From an uncultured Alphaproteobacteria bacterium (GTDB lineage: Bacteria; Pseudomonadota; Alphaproteobacteria; CAAGCB01; CAG-977), in the NCBI GenBank assembly GCA_944390195.1, contig CALXOZ010000002.1, positions 14,380-78,379 on the forward strand: DNA of 64,000 nt. The letters run 5' to 3'. Below, piece after piece: positions 7,793 to 61,334 of this stretch. Within the stretch, counting starts at the first letter, position 1; each line of letters starts with the position of its first letter. The notes under the pieces were generated by a model that saw nothing but the letters and a program-made list of their open reading frames with translations, made no database searches and had not been told where the DNA came from. The position numbers and the translations under genes are program-made.

Positions 7793-8554
7793 ATGGGCAA
7801 TCTTAGTCAGTCCAGAATTCTGATTTGCAATGATGATGGTATTCAGGCAAAGGGAATACAAGTACTTGAAAGGGTTGCCCGTCTTTTTTCCGATGATGTC
7901 TGGGTTGTTGCGCCGCAAACGGAACAAAGCGGGAAATCTCACAGCTTTACAATAGGGACGGATTTAATTGCGAAACGTGTCGCAGAACGGCATTTTTCAG
8001 TTGCTGGAACGCCGACCGATTGCGTATTGTTTGCTTGTAACGTATTAATGAAAGATAAAAAACCCGATTTCGTTTTGTCCGGAATAAACCACGGTGAAAA
8101 TGTCGGTTTGGATTTGCTGTATTCGGGAACGGTCGGTATTGCTTTGGAAGGGGCTTTGCAGGGGGCGAAATCTTTTGCGTTCAGTTTGGCCGGAGCTAAA
8201 AAAACAAGTGATTTCTGGGATATAACGGAACGTCGTGCCGAACAGGTTTTTTCATATTTCGCCGATTTCAGAGAAGCGGATTTTTTAAATGTCAATTTTC
8301 CTGCAACCGCTTCTTTAGCACCTGTAAAATTGACAACGGTTGCGGATCGTAAAATCGGAGATGACATAAAAGTGCTGTTGAATGAAAATGAAAAGATTGT
8401 ATTTTCCATTCAATCGACGCGTTCGGATTATCAAAAAAATGATATGACTGATGCAGAAGCAATAGAAAACGGTTTTGTTTCGATAACTCCGGTTCAAGTT
8501 AAATTATTCCAGCCCGCTTTTTTAAATAATAGCGTTTCTTTGGTTACTGGATAG
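7793..8554 (+). CDS. surE: 5'/3'-nucleotidase SurE
   Basis: 253 aa. 'ILICNDDGIQAKGIQ' N-terminal SurE signature and 'GINHGENVG' motif. Confidence 0.9.
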   Translation: MGNLSQSRILICNDDGIQAKGIQVLERVARLFSDDVWVVAPQTEQSGKSHSFTIGTDLIAKRVAERHFSVAGTPTDCVLFACNVLMKDKKPDFVLSGINHGENVGLDLLYSGTVGIALEGALQGAKSFAFSLAGAKKTSDFWDITERRAEQVFSYFADFREADFLNVNFPATASLAPVKLTTVADRKIGDDIKVLLNENEKIVFSIQSTRSDYQKNDMTDAEAIENGFVSITPVQVKLFQPAFLNNSVSLVTG

Positions 8555-13590: not shown

Positions 13591-13603
13591 ATGAAAATTC
13601 ACT

Positions 13604-13788
13604 AATTCTAAAAAATATTGTGTATTTTGGGGTATCTCGATAACCTATAATAGATCTGTCTCAATCAATCGCTTCTTTTCGTTGAAAGGAAAACATTCCG
13701 CTTAATAATGTCAAGCCAGCTTGCCTTTCTATTGTGATAAAACCGAACCGATCTGTGTATAAACTCGTTTAAATTCCTTCCACAGCTT
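13604..13788. repeat. composite repeat copy 1 (unit A 106 bp directly abutting unit B 76 bp)
   Basis: A (aattctaaaaaatattgtgtattttggggtatctcgataacctataatagatctgtc…ccgcttaataat) is identical to 14568-14673. B (aagccagcttgcctttctattgtgataaaaccgaaccgatctgtgtataaactcgtttaaattccttccacagctt) is about 97% identical to 14826-14901. Confidence 0.9.
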
Positions 13789-14567
13789 TCAGATTTATTG
13801 TATATTCCCGCTTGAGGGGCGAAGGACATTTTTTTGATTCAAGTGTTTTCAGATTTATAAGTATATGAAATTCCGGTTGAGAAAGCGGTTTTCCATTTTT
13901 TTAAAGATAATGAAAATTAAACTTTCTTTGTTTTGATGCTTATAAAAAACTATTAATCTGCCAGTTTTTTTGAAATTCTTTTATTGTGAAAGCCTGTCAT
14001 ATGCCAAAATAAAAAATTTAAATTGAAATGCTGTAAACTTGGTTTATGACTTTTAGTGCTTCAGATCCTGAGGACTGAAATTCTTACAGGATATTGGTAT
14101 TAAATCACTATTTGAAATATTTTTGATTCTATATCCCTATATCAAAATCACATGGATATAACATGATAATAAAATATTTCACACAATAAATTGTATGTAA
14201 AAAATTTTAAAGACAATTTGTTTGAATGAAGCTTTATTCAAAAATATAAATCTTTTTAAGAAAGTTATTAATAAAAGAAAACATTCCTTATAAAACGTTA
14301 GTTTCTGTTTTGTGTATAACTTCCCATATTGCCATCTAGACTTGAATAGCGTTTTATTTGGCTGGATGCGTAATTTGTTACTTATAACCGTAAACAGAAA
14401 AATGTCTGATGTAGTATGTTATTCCCAACTGTTTTATATATATAAGGTATCTGGCGATGATTTATGTTTTTGTCTGCCGTATCTTTAAATACCATTGCTT
14501 TAAAACCGTTTATTGCGATATTTAAAATTCATGTTCTATTCATAGATCATCAAACTTATATTTCAGA

Positions 14568-14901
14568 AATTCTAAAAAATATTGTGTATTTTGGGGTATC
14601 TCGATAACCTATAATAGATCTGTCTCAATCAATCGCTTCTTTTCGTTGAAAGGAAAACATTCCGCTTAATAATCAACTTTAGTATGTCGTTATTTGCATC
14701 GCTGAATTTGATCGCAAGCTTTTTCCATAAAAGCGTTCTAAGACAGCGCCGACGTTCTTCTTGCAAAGACGGCGATGTATTTGGACGATCTGTCTTGAGT
14801 CTTCCATGAAAAGGTTAAGCCCGCTTGCCTTTCTATTGTGATAAAACCGAACCGATCTGTGTATAAACTCGTTTAAATTCCTTCCACAGCTTCCAGAAAG
14901 C
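14568..14901. repeat. composite repeat copy 2 (unit A and unit B split by a 152-bp unique insert)
   Basis: Same A and B units as 13604-13788, with 14674-14825 inserted between them. Both copies lie inside a 2.3-kb gene-free AT-rich block. Confidence 0.9.
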
Positions 14902-15554: not shown

Positions 15555-15665
15555 GTGCGTAATTGCGAATGCGTTTAGCAACGATTTTTACGATTTTCAA
15601 TGATGTTTCCGTTAATAAAATTGCACGTTCGATATATCAGCTAAATGTCCTAAGCAGTAGGAATC
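15555..15665 (-). pseudogene. decayed fragment of the GGDEF-domain gene (paralogous to 20534-20645)
   Basis: About 110 bp alignable to the intact gene at 20534-20645 in the same orientation. Minus-strand translation gives RDS-YCLGHLADISNVQF* versus parent RDSDYLGRLADIEFAILL, with in-frame stops. Confidence 0.75.
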
Positions 15666-15693
15666 TCTTGACTATAAACTTGCCGGAATCACA

Positions 15694-15747
15694 TGCATAA
15701 AGAAGTCATGAATTTTTAATAAAAACGTATCATCTATAAATTTCCGA
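15694..15747. repeat. 54-bp perfect direct repeat C, copy 1 (flanks 15823-16521 gene)
   Basis: tgcataaagaagtcatgaatttttaataaaaacgtatcatctataaatttccga is identical to 16705-16758. Confidence 0.9.
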
Positions 15748-16704: not shown

Positions 16705-16758
16705 TGCATAAAGAAGTCATGAATTTTTAATAAAAACGTATCATCTATAAATTTCCGA
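16705..16758. repeat. 54-bp perfect direct repeat C, copy 2
   Basis: Identical to 15694-15747. Confidence 0.9.
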
Positions 16759-20347: not shown

Positions 20348-21487
20348 TTATGCCGGAGATTCTGCTACGGCAATATTGTTTTGTCGTTCTTTGGTTGAAC
20401 GCAAGGCATTAAAAGCGCGTAATAAAAGCGAATCGATTGTTTCATCCGTATCTGTTCGTGTCGCGATGCTTATACTTGTGGTAACGGTGATTTTTATATT
20501 TCCGACCATCAGATTTGATTTCATGACTTCATCGCGAATGCGCTCAGCAACGATTTTTGCGCCTTCCAATGGTGTTTCCGGTAATAAGATCGCAAATTCG
20601 ATATCGGCCAAACGTCCTAAGTAATCGGAATCCCTGATGGAATTTTGACAAGCTGTTACGGCGACTTTTATTGCTTCATCGCCGAATGCCGACCCGTGCT
20701 CGTTATTTAAAGCTTCGAAACGGTCAATGGTCATTAAAAGAACGGACAAGTTCCGTTTATAACGTCTTGCCCGTTTCATTTCTTTTGCTCCGTCTTCCAA
20801 GAACTGACGTCTGTTCAATACGCCGGTAACAGGATCGATTACAGTCATTTGACGTAATTCTTCTTCCAATTGTTTGCGCGGTGTTATATCGAACCCGACA
20901 GAACGGATTTCAGCCGGACGTCCATCGGGCCCGTAAATAATCCGGTTTGTCCATGAAATCCAAACTCTTCTGCCGTTTTTGCAAATATTTTCATTTTCAT
21001 TATCGACATACAGGCGCGGGTTGTTTTTAATGCGTTCAATCAAATTTGTTAAAGTTTGTCCGCGGGAATCTTTAGTTGGAACGATGGTACCGATAATATT
21101 TTTACCGATGAGTTCACTTTTATCGTTATAACCGTAAAATTCGCAGGCATAATCATTAACAGACAGGAGTATACCGTCTTTATCCATACAGATAAATAAA
21201 CTTTTCGTACCGGGGGAAGAGTATGGATCGAACTGGCGATGGCGTTCTTTTTTCATATCTTCCAATTCCTTTTGTACGGAAATTAAAGTATTTTGTAATT
21301 CAACGACTTTGTTTTTCAAGGCAATTTTTTTTGTTCTGCAAGATAAAAAGCGATAAAACAAATATATCAATGCAAAACTTAACACGAAACACAAAACAAC
21401 GGGCAATGATATAAACCCTGATGACTGAGATATTTTTCCTTCGGGCAGAAGAATTGTTTGAAAGTTGAAATAGGCTGAAAACGGCAT
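20348..21487 (-). CDS. membrane-anchored PAS–GGDEF-domain protein with degenerate active site (ADIEF instead of GG[DE]EF)
   Basis: 379 aa. N-terminal TM, PAS-like region, and a GGDEF fold recognisable by 'IDRFEALNNEHGSAFGDEAIK' and 'RYKRNLSVLLMTIDRF'. The signature reads 'GRLADIEFAILLPE'. Confidence 0.75.
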   Translation of the reverse strand: MPFSAYFNFQTILLPEGKISQSSGFISLPVVLCFVLSFALIYLFYRFLSCRTKKIALKNKVVELQNTLISVQKELEDMKKERHRQFDPYSSPGTKSLFICMDKDGILLSVNDYACEFYGYNDKSELIGKNIIGTIVPTKDSRGQTLTNLIERIKNNPRLYVDNENENICKNGRRVWISWTNRIIYGPDGRPAEIRSVGFDITPRKQLEEELRQMTVIDPVTGVLNRRQFLEDGAKEMKRARRYKRNLSVLLMTIDRFEALNNEHGSAFGDEAIKVAVTACQNSIRDSDYLGRLADIEFAILLPETPLEGAKIVAERIRDEVMKSNLMVGNIKITVTTSISIATRTDTDETIDSLLLRAFNALRSTKERQNNIAVAESPA

Positions 21488-29929: not shown

Positions 29930-30222
29930 ACGTTTAGCGCTTTCTTGCACTTCTTTGATGGTTTCCGTACGTCTTACAAAATTTTAACAAGATCGAAACC
30001 GCTTCCGATGATTAGTTATGCGAATTTGTTGCAAGCTTTCCAACAACATTTAATCGTGAAAACGCTTTGTGTCGGATTATCCTGTTTTGTGCGATACGGC
30101 TCAAAGTCCGGACGTTTTGTCCTAAATCTGTAAAGCGGTTACCCCGTATTACGCAAGATGTGTCGCAATCGTTTAGGAAGCTATGGATAAGTACACTAAA
30201 ATCACCGCTCGTCGATATCATT
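29930..30222 (+). pseudogene. decayed internal fragment of the pyruvate:ferredoxin oxidoreductase gene (paralogous to nifJ 33520-33812)
   Basis: About 290 bp collinear with nifJ. Translation gives FLHFFDGFRTSYKILTRSKP… versus parent FLHFFDGFRTSHEINKIETVSDDQLREFVEG…; other segments match nearly base for base (gatcgaaacc, gaaaacgctttg). Contains indels and a stop. Confidence 0.85.
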
Positions 30223-32859: not shown

Positions 32860-33020
32860 GGCTGAAGAAAAAACGTAAAAAGAGGTTGAAGAAACAATTC
32901 AACTGCGTTAAAGTTAAGCCCGCAAATCGGGGGAGTTTTTCTTGACGTCTGATTTGCCGATGTCGGGAAAACATTCCCTTCTATTTAAATCTTTCATTTT
33001 ATTTCTTGGAGAAAAAATCC

Positions 33021-36578
<3,558 letters not shown>

Positions 36579-38266: not shown

Positions 38267-38284
38267 ATATCGTGAAAAATAATA

Positions 38285-38320
38285 AAACAGACAAAAAATC
38301 TTTTGTCTGTTTTTTTATTT
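38285..38320 (+). terminator. rho-independent terminator after udp
   Basis: aaaacagacaaaa-aatc-ttttgtctgtttt followed by T-run. Confidence 0.8.
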
Positions 38321-51079: not shown

Positions 51080-51821
51080 ATGGTTTGATAATGCTATTAT
51101 CATCAGTGTTAAGAAATTCGGGGAACAAGACGGTATCATTTCTTTTTTGACAGGAAATCATGGTCGGTATGTCGGGCTATGTAAAGGGGCTTTTTCAAAA
51201 AGACTGGTTGGAACCGTCCAGCTTGGGAACTTGGTACAAATAAAATGGAATGCGCGTTTGGAAGAACATTTGGGCAAGGTGAAAGTCGAATTGGAAAGTG
51301 CTTATGCCTCACGTTTTTTTTCAGATTCCGGACGTTTACTGACATTATCCTGTTTATGCGGGATGTGCTCTTTATTGCCGGAACGCGAGAATGTAACAGA
51401 TTTTTTTGAAAAGACATTACAACAAATTATTTTGTTGGAAACCGAAAATTTTCAGGAACGTTACGCTAGATGGGAAGTGGAGTTGTTAAAAACATTAGGT
51501 TTCGGATTGGACTTATCTTCCTGCGCTTTGACAGGGACAACAGAGGATTTGGTTTACGTTTCTCCAAGAACAGGGCGGGCAGTATGTCGTTCGGCGGGGT
51601 TGGCTTGGAAAGATAGATTATTACCTTTACCCACGTTCCTGAAAGCTGATAATCTGGCTGCAAGTAATACTCTGGAAGTAAAAAAAGCTTTAGATTTAAC
51701 AGGATTTTTCCTTGAAAATCATGTTTCAAAAACGCTAGACTGCTCTATTCCGGCAGTCAGACGACGATTGGTTTATTATTTACAAACGAACAGACTTGTT
51801 TCAGGTGTTGAAAATGAATGA
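51072..51821 (+). CDS. recO: DNA repair protein RecO
   Basis: N-terminal OB fold (…IISVKKFGEQDGIISFLTGNHGRYVGL…) and C-terminal Cys cluster. Overlaps the era stop. Confidence 0.85.
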   Translation: MPEWFDNAIIISVKKFGEQDGIISFLTGNHGRYVGLCKGAFSKRLVGTVQLGNLVQIKWNARLEEHLGKVKVELESAYASRFFSDSGRLLTLSCLCGMCSLLPERENVTDFFEKTLQQIILLETENFQERYARWEVELLKTLGFGLDLSSCALTGTTEDLVYVSPRTGRAVCRSAGLAWKDRLLPLPTFLKADNLAASNTLEVKKALDLTGFFLENHVSKTLDCSIPAVRRRLVYYLQTNRLVSGVENE

Positions 51822-54030
51822 AAGTGAACAAATAAAAGAGACAAAAATGGCGGAAGCTTTGGCTGAACGCTATCTTGCTTATGCGATGTCAACAATTGTC
51901 TCCCGTTCATTGCCGGACGTGCGCGATGGGTTGAAACCAGTTCATCGCCGGTTGTTATATGCCATGAACGCACTGCATTTAGATCCTGAATCCGGATTTA
52001 AAAAATGTGCGCGTGTCGTCGGAGACGTTATTGGTAAATACCATCCTCACGGAGATACCGCCGTTTATGAAACAATGGTTCGTTTGGCTCAAGATTTCGC
52101 CGTTCGCTATCCTTTGGTTGAAGGACAAGGAAATTTCGGCAATATTGACGGAGACAGTGCCGCAGCCATGCGTTATACGGAAGCGCGCTTGACCGAAGTT
52201 GCCAAAGCTATTATGGACGGATTGAATGACGGTACGGTTGATTTCCGTCCGACGTATTCGGGGGAAGATATAGAACCTGTGATCATGCCATGCGCTTTTC
52301 CTAATTTGTTGGCGAACGGGTCGGCTGGAATTGCTGTCGGTATGGCAACGAATATAGCTCCGCATAATGTCGGAGAGCTTGCCGACGGATTGCAGTTGTT
52401 GATAAAAAAGCCGGATTGCAGTGTTGACGATTTGATGAAATTCATTCATGGACCGGATTTCCCGACGGGAGGGGAAATTGTTGAGCCATATGAAACTTTG
52501 TTGAAAATATACCAAACCGGACGCGGGGCAATGCGTGTCAGAGCAAAATGGGAAAAAGACGAACTGTCCCACGGTATGTATCAGATTATTGTTACCGAAA
52601 TTCCTTATATGGTGAAAAAATCGGAATTGATCAGTAAGACGGCTAAATTGTTATTAGAAAAAAAACTACCCTTTTTGGCCGATATCCGAGATGAATCCGC
52701 TGAAAACGTCCGTATTGTTTTGGAACCCAAAAACCGTAATATCGAACCTGAACAATTAATGGCTCATCTGTTCCGTTTGACCGATATGCAAGTCAATTTC
52801 AGTATGAATATGAATGTATTGGATAAAGACGGTGTACCGCGTGTAATGAATTTAAAACAGATTTTGCAGGCTTTTCTCGATCATCGACAAGAAGTCCTGA
52901 TCCGGCGTTCCAAGTTCCGGTTGGATAAGATCAATCATCGCATGGAAGTTTTGGAAGGATTTTTAATCGCCTTTTTAAATCTGGACGAAGTCATTCGTAT
53001 TATTCGTGAAGAAGATGATCCGAAAACGTCTTTGATGAAAGCGTTTCATTTGACGGAAGTCCAAACGGAGGCGATTCTGAATATGCGTTTACGATCCTTG
53101 CGCAAACTTGAAGAATTTCAAATCAAGTCCGAACATGAAGAATTGGCTGCCGAAAAAGAAAAATTAGAAGCTTTATTGAATAATGAAATGTTGAGATGGA
53201 AAGAAATTTCATCAGAAATTTCTTTAATGAAAAAAAAGTTCGGGCAGGGGACAAAACTCGGGAAACGGCGCACGGTCATATCTGGAGCTCCAGAGGAAAT
53301 TGAAATTCCTTTGGAAGCATTAATCGAACGTGAACCAATTACAGTTATTTTATCTGAAAAAGGGTGGATCAGGTCTGTAAAAGGACACATTCAATTAGAT
53401 GACGATATCAAATTCAAAGAAGGCGATCGGTTACAATGCGGCCTTCAAGCTCAAACGACGGATAAGATTTTAATGTTTGCAACAAACGGTCGATGTTATA
53501 CTTTGTCTGCCGATAAATTGCCTCGGGGCAGAGGGTTTGGAGAACCTGTCAGATTGTCGATAGATTTGCCAGAAGAAGATGAAATCATTTCTATGACGAT
53601 TTTTCACTCTGGAGAAAAAAGGCTAGTTCTTTCCAAAAAAGGGAAAGGATTTATTATTAAAGAAGACGATTTACTTGCGCAAACGAGAAACGGCAAGATC
53701 GTTTTAAATTTGATGCCGCAAGACAAAGCCTATCTTAACTTACCGGTAAAAGGGGATACTGTCGCCGTTATCGGAGACAATCGAAAGTTATTGATTTTTG
53801 ACTTGTCCGAAATTCCGGAAATGACACGAGGGCAAGGGGTGTTCGTTCAAAAATATCCTAAAGGTGTTGGTTTGTCAGACATAAAGTTGTTTAATAAAGC
53901 TGATGGATTAGCCTATCCTTGTGGTGGGGGGACAAGAATAGAAACAAACTTGCTGGGGTGGATCGGACATCGCGCTCAAATAGGAAAATTGCCACCTGTG
54001 GGCTTTCCTAAAAGCAATAAGTTTTCATAA
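51814..54030 (+). CDS. parC: DNA topoisomerase IV subunit A
   Basis: GyrA/ParC N-terminal breakage-reunion domain (…[28 protein letters not shown]…). C-terminal beta-pinwheel lacking the GyrA box, hence ParC. The paralog gyrA (58545-61334) carries QRRGGKG. Confidence 0.88.
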   Translation: MNESEQIKETKMAEALAERYLAYAMSTIVSRSLPDVRDGLKPVHRRLLYAMNALHLDPESGFKKCARVVGDVIGKYHPHGDTAVYETMVRLAQDFAVRYPLVEGQGNFGNIDGDSAAAMRYTEARLTEVAKAIMDGLNDGTVDFRPTYSGEDIEPVIMPCAFPNLLANGSAGIAVGMATNIAPHNVGELADGLQLLIKKPDCSVDDLMKFIHGPDFPTGGEIVEPYETLLKIYQTGRGAMRVRAKWEKDELSHGMYQIIVTEIPYMVKKSELISKTAKLLLEKKLPFLADIRDESAENVRIVLEPKNRNIEPEQLMAHLFRLTDMQVNFSMNMNVLDKDGVPRVMNLKQILQAFLDHRQEVLIRRSKFRLDKINHRMEVLEGFLIAFLNLDEVIRIIREEDDPKTSLMKAFHLTEVQTEAILNMRLRSLRKLEEFQIKSEHEELAAEKEKLEALLNNEMLRWKEISSEISLMKKKFGQGTKLGKRRTVISGAPEEIEIPLEALIEREPITVILSEKGWIRSVKGHIQLDDDIKFKEGDRLQCGLQAQTTDKILMFATNGRCYTLSADKLPRGRGFGEPVRLSIDLPEEDEIISMTIFHSGEKRLVLSKKGKGFIIKEDDLLAQTRNGKIVLNLMPQDKAYLNLPVKGDTVAVIGDNRKLLIFDLSEIPEMTRGQGVFVQKYPKGVGLSDIKLFNKADGLAYPCGGGTRIETNLLGWIGHRAQIGKLPPVGFPKSNKFS

Positions 54031-54066: not shown

Positions 54067-54618
54067 ATGCGTAAAATAGATGTAATATTATTGTTTGTTT
54101 TTTTGTTTTTTACGACATTTCCCTGTTTTGCGGATACTCAAAAGGAAGGGACATTTGATTTTTTGGAAAAAGATATAAAAAAAATATTAATATCAAAAGA
54201 CTGGGATATTTATCTGCCGGTTAACACATGGCACAACCGTGAAATGTATGATAAGAAAAAAACGGATTCTTATAATGAAAAACCGTGGGGGTTCGGTTTC
54301 GGAAAACATATTTATGAAGACGATATCTTACGTGGATTGTATTTTATGGTTTTCAGTGATTCTCACAGCAAACCGGAACCGATCTTAGGTTATTTGCGAC
54401 AATGGAATTATTATTTTGATGAAAACAAAGATTTCTCTGTCGGAGCCGGATATACTCTAGGCGTTACATTCAGAGACGATTACAATTATTTACCGATACC
54501 TGTCATTTTGCCGATTTTTGGCTTTCAATATAAAAAACTGGCTGTTCAAGCGACATACATTCCAGGGCCGTATAATATGTTCAACGTATTGTTTACTTGG
54601 GTCAGAATTGAGCTGTGA
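54067..54618 (+). CDS. pagP: lipid A palmitoyltransferase PagP
   Basis: 183 aa with signal peptide. '…LPVNTWHNREMYDKKKTDSYNEKPWGFGFG…YTLGVTFRDDYNYLPIPVILP…TYIPGPYNMFNVLFTW…' is collinear with E. coli PagP (…[30 protein letters not shown]…TYIPGTYNNGNVYFAW…). Confidence 0.85.
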   Translation: MRKIDVILLFVFLFFTTFPCFADTQKEGTFDFLEKDIKKILISKDWDIYLPVNTWHNREMYDKKKTDSYNEKPWGFGFGKHIYEDDILRGLYFMVFSDSHSKPEPILGYLRQWNYYFDENKDFSVGAGYTLGVTFRDDYNYLPIPVILPIFGFQYKKLAVQATYIPGPYNMFNVLFTWVRIEL

Positions 54619-54799
54619 AAAAATAAGAAAATTTTTCATTATCGTATCGTAGGAAAACATATCTTTTATTTGAAGCGAAATATTTATCTTATTTTTTCAA
54701 AAAGATTGCTGTTGATCATTTCTAGGTGGGCATTATTAAGTAATTCAAAATTATAAAAATGATTCTATCATAAGTGGAAAAATCGATCATACGCTTTTA

Positions 54800-54950
54800 C
54801 ACAAAAAACGACCATAACGGACTTCAATACGCCTTGCATAAGGAATTTATTTGAACATTGATGACAAAACGAAGTTCAATGCGACATTTGACGAATTGAT
54901 AGCTACAAATACCAAGTTCCAATTGAAAAACGTCAGTGTTCTTATCTAAA
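54800..54950 (+). pseudogene. decayed inverted fragment of the ADP-forming acetyl-CoA synthetase gene
   Basis: Translation ALHKEF/GIYLNIDDKTKFNATFDELIATNTKFQLKNVSVLI* versus parent ALHKTEMKGIYLNIDDEAKFNAAFDELTATIAKFQLKNASVLIQ (parent encoded on minus at about 55980-56110). The fragment is on the plus strand and has an indel and a stop. Confidence 0.85.
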
Positions 54951-55588
54951 ATTCGCTGATATCTTGGAACGTATGAAAAATTCTTAAATGACTTTCAGTT
55001 CAAATTTAGAATAAGATTGATGGAAAAAATGAATAGGAATTTAAAACTTAAAAAATAATATAAAATGCACAGAATAGAACTGTTTCATCAACTTTATGCA
55101 AAGAAATTTTCTAACAACTTTTTAAAAAAAAGCATATTTGGATTATTTTTTCAAAAACGACAAAAACTTAACGCATCTGAAAAAATGAAAAATTTTTCTG
55201 TTTTCCAATTTTTCGGAGATGTAGAGATTTAAGACTTTTATGAAAAAGTAAAGGGAAAAAATTACTGCCTTAGCTATATTTATAATTGCAGATAAATATC
55301 AGCTAAACTTTTTTATAAATTACTAGGACACTCTATTCCAAATTAATGCGAAAAAACGAAATGAACTTATATACAGTCAAAAGCTCTGAATAATTCGTAA
55401 GCTAGATAAACTCGAATAAGTAACACAAAACTTCTAAAACATATCCAGATAAAAATTTAAAGCTGTATAAGAAAGTTAGAAGTTGAACTTTGTTGAAGCT
55501 TCAGCGTTTTATGATGATATATAAAAAAAACTTTTCCGCTTTTCAAACATTTCGAGCAGAATAGAACGTGTTCTTTTTGTCCCGACCA

Positions 55589-55608
55589 CCCCCGCAATTA
55601 TGCGGGGG
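55589..55608 (-). other. GC-rich hairpin 18 nt downstream of the acetyl-CoA synthetase stop (possible terminator without U-tract)
   Basis: cccccgca-atta-tgcggggg. Confidence 0.3.
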
Positions 55609-55625
55609 TAGAAAAGGAAAAAGTT

Positions 55626-57707
55626 TTATTTTAATAACATTTTAAAATCGACGACGACAGCACGGTCTTTTGTTACCAGAACTGGATTTCCGTCAATGGA
55701 TTTTATTTCCGGAATTTCCAGAACCAATTGTTGAACCTTCTTTAACGTTTCAGCCAAAGGTCCGACCGCTTTAGGTTCTTCTCCTCTAACACCATTCAAA
55801 ATCGTTCCGATTTTTGTTTCTTTGATCATTGCGTCAAAATCATCAGCAGGAAGAATACGCATTGTCGTATCCCGCATGACTTCCGTATAGATGCCGCCCG
55901 TTCCAAAGATCATGACACGACCGAAATTTTTATCAGAATTAACACCGATAATCGTTTCAGAAGCCTTGACGATCATTTCTTGGATAAGGACACTGGCGTT
56001 TTTCAATTGGAACTTGGCAATTGTCGCCGTCAATTCATCAAACGCCGCATTGAACTTCGCTTCGTCATCGATGTTCAAATAAATTCCCTTCATTTCCGTT
56101 TTATGCAAAGCGTCAGGAGCGGAAAGCTTCAACACGACAGGAGAGGGGAAAAGCTTTTTACAAAATGCCAATGCTTCATTTTTATCCGTAAAGTTACCGC
56201 ATTTCGGATAGTCGATTCCGTAATGATCCATGATTTTGTTCATTGTTGTTTGCGGTAAGGAAGCTAAACCGTCATTTACGGCTTTTTTAATTTCCTCTTT
56301 AATTTCGGACGGGACGTCATGACATTCGACTTTTACATCAGGCATTCCTCTGAACGCCATTTGGGCTTTCATCAAACCGAGCAAGCGGATACAATCTGTC
56401 GGATAATCATATGCAAGGATATTTTGAGCTTTTAACATATTAACAGCTTCTCTAACGCGTTCTCCGCCGATAAAGGAGCAGAAAATGTTAATATCTTTAA
56501 ATTGAGGAGCCAGTTTGATAATAGCTTCAGCCGTTTCTTTGGGTTCTGTCGACATTTGAGGCGTCAATAGAACGATGATGTTTTTATATTCACCAGATTC
56601 GCATAAAACGCGCAAAGCGTTTTCATAACGATCCGCTTTTGCGTCTCCGACGACATCAATCGGGTTTCCGACGGAAGCTTCCGGCGTTAAAACGGCGCGT
56701 AATTTTTCGATTGTTTTTTCACTTGGGCGAGCCAAATCCAGATGAGCATCTTCGCATAAATCAGAAGACAAAACACCGACGCCACCTGCATTTGTCAATA
56801 TTCCAACAGAACCGGAAAAATCGGTATGGTTGACATGTTGCAACAATTCCAAAGCTCCGAACAATTCGCGAGTTGTATAAACTTGAATGGCGCCGCTACG
56901 TTGCAAAGCAATTTCCAAAACGCGGTAATTGGGAGCCAGAGACCCTGTATGTGACAAGCTGGCCGCTTGAGCTTTGCTGGATTTTCCGGGTTCCATGATA
57001 ACACATGGTTTCGTTTTGCTGACTTCTTTCAAGATACGCAAGAACTCTTGCCCTTTTTTCAGTCCTTCCAGATAGAAAACGAAAGCTTTTGTGTTCGGAT
57101 CGTGTTGAATGGCTTCCAACAAAGAAGCTTCGTTCAAATCCGCTTTATTCCCGATGGAGATGAAATGAGAAAATCCGATTCCCTTTTCTTCAGCCCAGTC
57201 GAGAATGGCGCTGCAATAGGCTCCCGACTGTGAAATGAAAGCGACATTTCCTTGTAAGGGGAAACAGGGAGCAAAACTTGCATTTAATTTATCGAAAGTG
57301 GAAATATGTCCCAAGCAGTTCGGACCCAACAAATTAATATTGTTATCCAAACATTTTTTTGCGATTTTCAATTCCAGTTCTTTATTTCCAGCTTCTCCGA
57401 ACCCTGCAGTGATGATACTGATATTTTTAGCTTTGTTAACAATTGCATCATCGACGGCGGCTTCGCAAAAACGAGCGGGAACCAATAAGACGACAAGGTC
57501 TACGGGATTGGGAATATCGCGTACGGAAGCAAAACATTTTTTACCTTTGAGTTCTTGTCCGGCCAACTTCGGATTGACACCGTAAAGATCTCCTTGGAAA
57601 CCGGCTTCAATCAGATTTTTAAAAACAACGGCTCCCAATTTTGATTCGTCAGCGGAAACACCGACAACCGCAATGGAATGCGGATTGAAAAATGTACTTA
57701 AAGACAT
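55626..57707 (-). CDS. acetate--CoA ligase (ADP-forming), fused alpha-beta subunits (Acd / NDP-forming acyl-CoA synthetase)
   Basis: About 694 aa. N-terminal CoA-binding 'IAVVGVSADESKLG', succinyl-CoA-synthetase-like flavodoxin and ligase-CoA domains, and a C-terminal ATP-grasp part. Start chosen at the second ATG after AAGGGA. Confidence 0.88.
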   Translation of the reverse strand: MSLSTFFNPHSIAVVGVSADESKLGAVVFKNLIEAGFQGDLYGVNPKLAGQELKGKKCFASVRDIPNPVDLVVLLVPARFCEAAVDDAIVNKAKNISIITAGFGEAGNKELELKIAKKCLDNNINLLGPNCLGHISTFDKLNASFAPCFPLQGNVAFISQSGAYCSAILDWAEEKGIGFSHFISIGNKADLNEASLLEAIQHDPNTKAFVFYLEGLKKGQEFLRILKEVSKTKPCVIMEPGKSSKAQAASLSHTGSLAPNYRVLEIALQRSGAIQVYTTRELFGALELLQHVNHTDFSGSVGILTNAGGVGVLSSDLCEDAHLDLARPSEKTIEKLRAVLTPEASVGNPIDVVGDAKADRYENALRVLCESGEYKNIIVLLTPQMSTEPKETAEAIIKLAPQFKDINIFCSFIGGERVREAVNMLKAQNILAYDYPTDCIRLLGLMKAQMAFRGMPDVKVECHDVPSEIKEEIKKAVNDGLASLPQTTMNKIMDHYGIDYPKCGNFTDKNEALAFCKKLFPSPVVLKLSAPDALHKTEMKGIYLNIDDEAKFNAAFDELTATIAKFQLKNASVLIQEMIVKASETIIGVNSDKNFGRVMIFGTGGIYTEVMRDTTMRILPADDFDAMIKETKIGTILNGVRGEEPKAVGPLAETLKKVQQLVLEIPEIKSIDGNPVLVTKDRAVVVDFKMLLK

Positions 57708-58028
57708 CATTTTCCCTTTCAAAAACTTTAAGTGTAACTGGGTTGTAATATGAAATGGTTATACACGAAAAGTCAAGGTAATTTTGAGCTTTTTCATAAT
57801 ATGAAACAATAAAAAATTCAGATGTTTTTTTTGGCGTATGGACAAATGGAAAATGCTCAGAGGAACATAACCATTTAAATAATGAAAAAAGTGAAAAATG
57901 ATAAATAACTAATTGATTTTTATAAAAATTGATTTAAAAAACGCTTTTAAAAAAAGAAAAGCTTTTTTTTCCGTCTTTTTCGGTGTAAAAAGAGGATACT
58001 ATTGTTATTGATAATGTGAGATATGGAA

Positions 58029-58544: not shown

Positions 58545-61334
58545 GTGGAAAATACTGTAAAAGATTCTTCGGTCGTTGTTGTCGGTATCGAAGAAGAAAT
58601 GAAGCGTTCTTACTTGGATTACGCGATGAGCGTGATCGTTTCGCGTGCCTTACCTGATGTTCGTGACGGATTAAAGCCGGTACACCGCCGTATTTTATAT
58701 TCCATGCACGAAAACGGATACGACTACAATAAACCGTTCCGCAAGTCAGCGCGTATCGTCGGAGATGTCATGGGGAAATATCACCCTCATGGTGATGCCG
58801 CAATCTATGATGCCATGGTTCGTATGGCTCAAAGCTTTTCCATGAGCCTGCCATTGATCTCTTCTCAAGGTAATTTCGGCTCCATTGACGGAGATCCTCC
58901 TGCGGCAATGCGTTATACCGAAGCCCGTCTGGCTTTATCCGCCCACAATTTATTGGATGATATTGATAAAGACACGGTTAATTTTTCCCCAAACTATGAT
59001 GAAACCGTTCTTGAACCGTCTGTTTTACCGGCTCGTTTCCCCAATATTTTAGTCAACGGAGCCGGTGGGATAGCTGTTGGTATGGCGACAAACATTCCCC
59101 CGCACAACTTGGGAGAAGTGATTGATGCCGCTATCGCTTGTGTTGATCACCCCGATATTTCCGATGAAGAATTGTTGCAGATTGTCCCTGGACCCGATTT
59201 TCCGACAGGCGGTATAATTCTTGGACGATCCGGATCCAGAGCTACAGAGCTGACAGGGCGCGGATCGATCATCATGCGCGGCAGAACGCATATTGAAGAA
59301 ATCCGTAAAGACCGCTGGGCAATCATTATAACAGAAATACCGTATCAAGTGAATAAATCCGCCATGATTTCCCGTATTGCGGAATTGGTGAGAGATAAAA
59401 CAATTGACGGTATTTCCGATATCCGTGATGAATCCGACCGTCAGGGAATACGCGTCGTTATTGAAATAAAGCGTGATTTTCATCCCGAGATCATTTTAAA
59501 CCAACTGTTCCGTTACACGTCTTTGCAGACAAGTTTCGGAGCCAATATGATTGCTTTGAATGCCGGACGACCGCAATTGATGAATTTGCGTGAAATGCTC
59601 GGAGCCTTCATTGCCTTTCGTGAAGAAGTCATCCGACGCAGAACGATTTACGAGTTGAACAAAGCGCGTGATCGGGCGCATTTATTGGTCGGTTTGGCAA
59701 TAGCTGTGGAAAACCTTGATTCCGTGATCGAATTGATTCGAAGCGCTCCGAACAGAAATGCCGCAAAAGAAAGTTTGATGAAACGTTCTTGGCCGGCTCA
59801 TCAAATCGTTCCGTTAATAGATCTGATCGACGATCCCGAATATGAAGCGGTTGACGGTGTTTGCAAACTGTCTGAAAAACAAGCGGATGGTATACTGGAC
59901 TTGCGTTTACACCGATTGACAGGTTTGGAACGTGAAAAAATCCATAATGAACTGCGCGAATTAGGCAGTATTATCAAAGAACTCTTATCTGTTCTGGCTT
60001 CGCGAGAAAAGTTATATGGTATCATGCGTGAGGAACTGGTTAAAGTGAAGGAAGAATTTTCCACACCGCGCCGGACAACGATAGAAGAAATTGAATTTGA
60101 ACATGATATCGAAGACCTCATTCAACGCGAAGATATGGTTGTAACCGTTACCAATACAGGGTATATCAAACGTGTTCCGTTGTCTTCATACCGTGCTCAA
60201 AGGCGTGGAGGAAAGGGACGTACGGGCATGAACACGCACGAAGAGGATTATATTACGAATTTGTTCGTTGCCAGTACGCATACACCTGTTTTGTTCTTTT
60301 CAAATGCCGGTTTGGTTTACAAAATGAAAGTTTACCGTTTACCGGTCGGCTCGCCGCAATCAACGGGCAAAGCTTTAATTAATTTGTTGCCCTTAAAGCA
60401 GGATGAGCGAATTACGACGATTATGCAGTTACCGGAAGACGAAAACGAATGCGATAATCTGGATGTCATGTTTGCAACGCGTTCTGGGAACGTACGGCGG
60501 AACAAACTATCCGATTTTGTCGATGTAAAAGCTAACGGTAAAATCGCAATGAAGTTGGATGAAGGCGATACGTTGATAGATGTGAAAATTTGTACGGACG
60601 ACCAAGATGTCTTGTTGGCGGCAAAAGGTGGAAAGTCGATCCGTTTCCCTGTTTCCGAAGTTCGTGTTTTTTCCGGAAGGACATCGACGGGAGTTCGCGG
60701 CATTCGGCTTGGAAAGGGCGACGAGGTTATTTCCATGTCTGTTTTGCGTCATACGGAAGCGGATATGGAAAAACGTTACGCTTATTTGAAGATGGCAAAA
60801 GCTTTGCGACGTTCGGACGAAAGTGAAGAAAATACAACGGACGACCCTGAAGCCGTATCATCGTTGACCTTATCCGAAGAAGAATTCCAAAAAATGCAGT
60901 CCGAAGAGGAATTTATTTTAACAGTAACGGACAGTGGCTATGGAAAAAGGACTTCGGCTTACGAATACCGCATTACGGGAAGAGGCGGTCAAGGGGTTAC
61001 CAATATAGATAACACGAAAAGAAAAGATAGTGTTGTCGCTTCGTTTCCCATAACAGATACAGCTCATGTCATGCTTGTAACGGATGCGGGCAAGTTAATC
61101 CGTATGCCTGTAAAAGATGTCCGTATTGCGGGCAGGAATACGATGGGGGTCATTATGTTCCGTTTGTCCGATGTTGAACATGTTGTGTCTGCGACATGTA
61201 TAGAAGATTATGAGGAGGAAACTCCGGAAGAGGAGGAAGAAGGATTAGAAGATGCCCTTCAAACGTTGCCGGAGAATGAATCGGAAGAGGCTCAAAAAAT
61301 GAATGAGAGTTCAAAGGAAAATCAGGATGACTGA
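58545..61334 (+). CDS. gyrA: DNA gyrase subunit A
   Basis: 929 aa. N-terminal domain with active-site region. GyrA box '[10 protein letters not shown]'. An acidic insertion in the CTD (…[34 protein letters not shown]…) and a long acidic C-terminal tail. Confidence 0.93.

Follow-up and report, generated by a model that had tools for sequence, protein, structure and literature searches.

An inverted, decayed piece of the acetyl-CoA synthetase gene acd next to its parent in an uncultured gut alphaproteobacterium: probably a non-functional relic of a rearrangement

When a piece of a metabolic gene lies in reverse orientation just beyond the 3' end of the gene from which it was copied, the question arises whether the copy does something for its parent, for instance as the source of an antisense or hairpin RNA, or whether it is a scar left by a past rearrangement. 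We address this question for acd, the gene for an ADP-forming acetyl-CoA synthetase, in DNA from an uncultured gut alphaproteobacterium (the window, by which we mean the whole stretch of 64,000 nt that was analysed). The acd gene lies on the minus strand (55626-57707) and is called in public assemblies as a protein of 693 aa. The length of 698 aa that a first-pass annotation of the window had given for these coordinates does not belong to them, but it does fit the open reading frame (ORF) if this is followed to a TTG codon at 57722, and it is to this longer ORF that the residue numbers below refer. The protein carries the CoA_binding, Succ_CoA_lig, Ligase_CoA_2 and ATP-grasp_5 domains, which make up the full set for an ADP-forming acetyl-CoA synthetase. 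Its left neighbour is pagP (54067-54618, plus strand), a member of the lipid A palmitoyltransferase family (Pfam PagP, E = 4e-51), and between these two convergent genes lies a non-coding spacer of 1007 nt (54619-55625) with a GC content of about 32%. Further out, the locus is bracketed by a parC-like gene (51796-54030) on one side and gyrA (58545-61334) on the other, both oriented alike, and over 179 nt (52009-52187 and 58749-58927) these two remain 72% identical in nucleotide sequence, as expected of paralogues.

Comparison of the 1007-nt spacer with the acd gene by blastn returned a single strong match of 94/108 nt, ungapped (E = 2e-34), which pairs spacer positions 224-331 (window 54842-54949, plus strand) with gene nt 1636-1743 (window 55980-56087, minus strand), and a comparison of the window with itself recovers the same pair (E = 4e-31). 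The proposal of the first-pass annotation, that an inverted piece of acd sits about 0.7 kb beyond the 3' end of the gene, had been made dependent on such a significant nucleotide alignment, and the piece is indeed there: it is inverted relative to its parent, and 677 nt separate its end from the acd stop codon. A gapped local alignment widens the fragment to 121 nt (54829-54949, plus strand, against gene nt 1610-1743) and reveals a deletion of 13 nt, so the span first given for it, 54800-54950, was correct to within about 30 nt while the true extent is the narrower one. Within the fragment, 54829-54841 corresponds to gene nt 1610-1622, the next 13 nt of the gene are deleted, and 54842-54949 corresponds to gene nt 1636-1743, where a TAA at the terminus takes the place of the parental CAA; identity amounts to 87% over the 108 ungapped nt, and past the deletion there are 13 further matching nt. 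The parent segment (55980-56113, minus strand), about 1.0 kb away, belongs to the ATP-grasp_5 domain (residues 538-581). Of the 2097 nt of the gene the copy has only nt 1610-1743, so that it includes neither the start nor the greater part of the coding sequence. At the protein level (tblastn), GIYLNIDDKTKFNATFDELIATNTKFQLKNVSVLI aligns with residues 546-580 at 80% identity over 35 residues (E = 1e-14), with ALHK following GIYLNIDDKTKFNATFDELIATNTKFQLKNVSVLI in another frame, as had been claimed, and a DNA profile built from 33 acd genes detects the fragment as well (nhmmer, E = 3e-22). On either side of the fragment only about 25% of positions still agree with the parent, and the edges are therefore sharp.

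Searches for further acd pieces in the spacer with tblastn (word size 2) and with nhmmer and hmmsearch profiles from the 33 acd genes returned the known fragment only. A stretch of the spacer at 55377-55417 (minus strand) matches gene nt 835-875 weakly, at 32/41 nt and in the parental orientation, and it may be a second, older and more decayed acd piece: with the parent as the sole target it outscores 200/200 dinucleotide shuffles, and its own parent matches it better than any orthologue does. Its score lies within the range that shuffled spacers reach against the whole window, and the family profiles miss it. We also considered a 13-nt match between 54714-54726 and the parental sequence just beyond the right edge of the fragment (E = 3.2). 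It might have pointed to an internal inversion, but we attribute it to chance because it has neither an extended alignment nor profile support. Apart from the fragment, the spacer resembles nothing else in the window and no plasmid or phage searched, and neither blastn nor tblastx finds a counterpart to it in the DNA that flanks acd in about 87 related loci.

The fragment agrees with its own parent at 94/108 positions and with orthologues at 70-83/108, which indicates that it was copied from the acd gene of this genome. Two lesions disable it, a frameshifting deletion of 13 nt and the CAA to TAA stop, and 8/14 of its differences from the parent, the stop included, affect first or second codon positions at which the parent and 32 orthologues all share one base and the fragment alone departs from it. 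The direction of change is strongly one-sided: at 12 sites a G or C of the parent faces an A or T of the fragment, at 1 site the opposite holds (binomial p = 0.003), and the GC content is 0.32 in the fragment compared with 0.43 in the parent segment. Between fragment and parent, pN is 0.089, while comparisons of the parent with its four closest orthologues give 0.037-0.041; pS, by contrast, is 0.26, about three times lower than the saturated values of 0.71-0.75 between the parent and those orthologues. Together with the substitution pattern, these values indicate that the fragment has been released from constraint at the protein level and is drifting under GC to AT pressure, and the low synonymous divergence implies that the duplication is considerably younger than the separation from the nearest species sampled. 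Not every difference need have arisen in the copy: three third-position differences (alignment positions 18, 51 and 99) look as if the parent had changed, because the fragment's state is the commoner one among orthologues, and at positions 18 and 99 the parent gene of some conspecific strains retains the state seen in the fragment. Within the species, the spacer carries 16 polymorphic sites in 1007 nt and acd only 5 in 2097 nt, a density about 7 times higher (p = 5e-5), and the spacer is thus unconstrained. The fragment itself has 1 polymorphic site in 121 nt compared with 15 in the remaining 886 nt of the spacer, fewer in proportion, though not significantly so (p = 0.71).

Look-ups of the exact Acd and PagP proteins retrieved conspecific contigs that stem from independent samples and from different assemblers. 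In 9/9 of those that span the region, the spacer with its fragment is found in identical placement and at ≥99.2% identity, and an assembly artefact can hence be set aside. Outside the species the picture is a different one: of about 90 loci that belong to other species and were taken from GTDB representative genomes and JGI metagenomes, 0 have an acd-like piece in their flanks, and in about 70 of them the sequence extends at least 0.9 kb past acd. The scan of GTDB representatives contributed 61 loci and that of JGI metagenomes 26, and among these none falls between the species itself and lineages at 96% acd identity. Because all copies of the fragment are at least 99% identical to each other, they are too close to one another to support a proper phylogenetic test of selection. 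The features by which a pseudogene or gene relic is recognised, i.e. homology, truncation, lesions, relaxed constraint and absence from related species, are all found in the fragment.

The nearest acd genes, at 86-95% amino acid identity, come from metagenome-assembled genomes (MAGs) labelled "Alphaproteobacteria bacterium", Rhodospirillaceae and Rhodospirillales from the human, ruminant and horse gut. Akkermansia MAGs and one 'Dehalococcoidales' MAG (loci L035-L049, L051, L055, L058 and L059) carry orthologues at 72-76% amino acid identity, which suggests that acd is shared across phyla among gut bacteria. One locus (L010, CAVCSV010000031.1) is labelled Limosilactobacillus gorillae and yet has the alphaproteobacterial gyrA-ssb-acd synteny and 93% acd identity; contamination of the bin or mislabelling is likely.

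The position of the fragment coincides with a break in gene order. Upstream of acd, the order gyrA-ssb-acd is kept in the relatives, whereas the genes downstream of acd vary from genome to genome, and neither pagP nor parC was ever found downstream of acd in a relative among the loci examined, so that the adjacency of pagP and acd is unique to this species within that set. The sequences just after acd (compared across loci L001-L033) tell the same story in finer detail. All relatives inspected there have a canonical bidirectional terminator, consisting of an A-tract, a GC hairpin and a T-tract, within about 45 nt of the acd stop codon, while in this species homology to the relatives stops at the stop codon itself. 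What follows is a GC-rich hairpin at 55588-55609 (minus strand, ACCCCCGCA-loop-TGCGGGGGT), which starts 17 nt past the stop and is not followed by a U-tract, and then the spacer. The spacer in which the fragment is placed thus is the synteny break relative to all relatives. The contigs of the closest relatives often end 140-610 nt past acd (L001-L004, L009, L017, L018, L073 and L089), and one of them, L003, has a tandem repeat of about 128 nt downstream of acd (8140-8423); these observations suggest that repeated DNA downstream of acd breaks assemblies in the closest relatives.

On the sequence evidence we consider it very probable that the fragment is a non-functional relic, namely a short inverted partial copy, of about 134 nt originally, of the interior of the genome's own acd gene. 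The copy would have been laid down when the block containing parC and pagP was joined to the 3' end of acd, at a junction specific to this lineage, and the most likely mechanism would be a template switch during replication, or the capture of templated filler DNA, in the course of the rearrangement that made this junction. A templated insertion is favoured because the piece is short, inverted, sharply bounded, 1 kb from its donor and located exactly at the synteny break. The setting also favours it: GC skew and gene orientation make the plus strand the leading strand, so that acd, being on the minus strand, lies head-on to replication, and head-on gene orientation is known for stalling replication forks. 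After its insertion, the copy would have drifted without constraint under the GC to AT pressure of the genome, taking on the frameshifting deletion of 13 nt, the stop codon and replacements at family-invariant residues, and, having no effect, it may have become fixed in the species simply by neutrality. The junctions of the fragment, on inspection, display no clear microhomology, about 10% divergence having accumulated since the insertion. In itself the fragment is of little importance, as another decaying gene relic, but it can serve as a marker that dates and locates the rearrangement by which parC-pagP was joined to the 3' end of acd in this uncultured gut alphaproteobacterium.

As a bacterial gene relic, the fragment belongs to a well-known kind, of which it is a previously undocumented case. 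Gene relics and pseudogene fragments that arise by partial duplication have been reviewed as part of the 'junk DNA' of host-associated bacteria (PMC3899985), and the acd fragment resembles them in that a functional gene is represented, in AT-rich intergenic DNA, by a truncated copy with a frameshift and a stop, which evolves under relaxed constraint, decays towards AT and is lineage-specific. It differs from them in being only 121 nt long, inverted, 0.7 kb from its parent and sharp-edged, and in not being a whole inactivated gene. Templated insertions and inverted segments are known from MMBIR (PMC8421209) and from E. coli, where amplification can involve long-distance template switching (PMC1428787). 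The acd fragment resembles them as a short piece that was copied in inverted form from close by and that sits between sharp breakpoints where a rearrangement joined two regions. Two differences should be kept in mind, namely that after about 10% neutral divergence the junctions show no recognisable microhomology, and that in this case the event is read back from the finished sequence; the size of about 134 nt and the distance of 1 kb are compatible with template-switch insertions, not diagnostic of them.

The same remnant could also be reached from a larger beginning. A far longer part of acd might once have been duplicated in inverted, tail-to-tail orientation, or a tandem-inversion-duplication intermediate might have formed, and deletions might then have removed most of the copy and left a sharp-edged remainder that would be no more functional than a short insertion; we regard this origin as possible, if somewhat unlikely. 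Tandem inversion duplications (TID) and their deletion-remodelled derivatives have reportedly been characterised in Salmonella and E. coli, in work ascribed to Kugelberg et al. 2010 and to Reams & Roth 2015. The tail-to-tail arrangement of an inverted partial copy beside its parent is what such a history predicts, and later deletions are expected to erase the symmetric junctions of a TID; bacterial genomes are biased towards deletion, and the fragment already contains an internal deletion of 13 nt. The drop from 87% to about 25% identity at each edge, however, leaves no room for a gradual decay of flanking gene sequence, and sequence profiles detect no other acd-derived stretch in the spacer. 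The possible second piece at 55377-55417 in the same spacer would speak for a larger duplication, but it is opposite in orientation to the fragment and not colinear with it, unlike what a simple inverted duplication would leave. Moreover, the symmetric junction has not survived, there is no third copy or palindromic junction, and the fragment is far shorter than typical TID units. On balance we prefer the short templated insertion, although either history could have left the fragment as it is.

The first-pass annotation had suggested a cis-regulatory antisense or hairpin RNA. Spelled out for this locus, transcription of acd would read past the hairpin that has no U-tract, copy the minus strand of the fragment and let this pair with acd mRNA nt 1610-1743 across a loop of about 1 kb, giving an RNase III substrate that lowers acd expression; we judge this reading to be highly improbable. 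The predicted duplex is strong (-167 kcal/mol, as against -57 ± 4 for shuffled partners, by cofold with the minus strand transcribed), but such an energy is trivial, being automatic for any inverted repeat at 87% identity, and hence does not count as independent evidence. The hairpin after acd lacks the U-tract that is present in all inspected relatives, which makes read-through across the fragment conceivable, and the fragment is fixed in 9/9 conspecific contigs; yet transcription would first have to cross about 680 nt of AT-rich, untranslated sequence, and a consensus scan found no promoter-like site on the minus strand of the spacer, in which promoter-like and terminator-like sites are altogether at or below the expectation from shuffled sequences. 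The Rfam search gave no match above threshold, its two sub-threshold hits both being to eukaryotic families, and the fragment is missing from all other species examined. The complementarity is being eroded and not preserved, with 12 one-directional GC to AT differences in addition to the 13-nt deletion. The suggested regulatory RNA thus remains unsupported, whereas the other option offered in the same annotation, that of another duplication scar, agrees with the frameshift and stop, the changes at family-invariant sites, the GC to AT direction and the absence of the fragment outside the species. That the fragment has been kept because read-through from acd yields about 120 bp of intramolecular dsRNA that RNase III cleaves appears to us more improbable still; if true, it would amount to self-limiting control of the ATP-yielding acetate branch and to a bacterial analogue of pseudogene-derived hairpin regulation. 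In mouse oocytes, endo-siRNAs that stem from pseudogene-derived antisense or hairpin RNAs regulate the parent gene. To our knowledge the RNAi machinery is absent from bacteria, so that only cleavage of the RNase III type could act here, and bacterial RNase III does digest overlapping sense and antisense transcripts. The likeness to the pseudogene-derived RNAs lies in the geometry, which would permit a read-through transcript to form long dsRNA with the coding region of the parent; unlike them, the fragment is not conserved and its complementarity is decaying. Very unlikely, too, is a micropeptide derived from the ATP-grasp segment and encoded by a 32-codon ORF at 54851-54949, with a TTG start and AAGGA 7 nt upstream. 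This ORF does have its Shine-Dalgarno-like motif, and two promoter-like matches lie close by on the plus strand, but both AAGGA and TTG already stand inside the coding sequence of the parent (K-G-I-Y-L), from which the fragment took them over, and are therefore not new signals, the stop codon stems from a single C to T change, 7 residues differ from the parent at family-invariant positions, promoter-like sites are rarer than in shuffles, and the sole polymorphism in the fragment is uninformative. The likelihood becomes negligible for a role as the template repeat (TR) of a diversity-generating retroelement, or as a silent cassette that donates sequence to acd by gene conversion, a reading that the size of about 130 nt, the identity of 87% and the nearness to the target might suggest through a superficial resemblance to TR/VR pairs. 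We reject it on the pattern of mismatches and the missing variability: the fragment has A at 7/14 mismatches and the parent at 0/14, which is not adenine-specific, and the parent segment, far from being hypervariable, is invariant in 32 orthologues and in the strains of the species. The spacer contains no reverse transcriptase (no ORF exceeds 56 aa) and the neighbouring genes are pagP and acd, the target would be a cytoplasmic metabolic enzyme, and the would-be template is a single copy with a frameshift and a stop.

For annotation, it follows that neither the 32-codon ORF nor the other short ORF of the spacer, of 55 codons at 55065-55232, should be called as a gene. The latter is called as such in some public assemblies (L070-L072) and is probably spurious, given that it has no Pfam match and a low-complexity, AT-driven composition.

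The acd fragment is not the only one of its kind in the window. Self-comparison of the window also pairs the nifJ/PFOR gene (33006-36578, plus strand) with a direct fragment of 281 nt at 83% identity (29942-30221 against 33525-33803), which lies in a non-coding AT-rich gap 3.3 kb upstream of the parent segment and contains 5 gap positions and stops, with an AT skew of 30:9. It likewise pairs a PAS-GGDEF gene (20348-21487, minus strand) with a fragment of 107 nt at 79% identity (15562-15668 against 20531-20635), located in a gene-poor AT-rich stretch about 4.7 kb past the 3' end of that gene and with an AT skew of 16:4. Since both fragments are AT-skewed in the same way as the acd fragment, local partial duplication followed by decay is real in this window; the first-pass annotation had read the same pairs as a sign of a genome-wide habit. 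The window holds three gene/fragment pairs in its 64 kb, and if this density were genome-wide, it would imply an unusually active process of short-range duplication or template switching. The three relics also provide a clean local readout of the neutral mutation spectrum of the lineage, which is strongly GC to AT.

The window also contains other repeats. Two pairs of direct repeats, 13598-13793 with 14562-14897 and 15694-15747 with 16705-16758, are young, non-coding and 95-100% identical, and the region that contains them (13.5-17.3 kb) is AT-rich and largely free of ORFs. Between two plus-strand ORFs, a near-perfect palindrome of 44 nt (91%) at 38277-38320 is probably a terminator.
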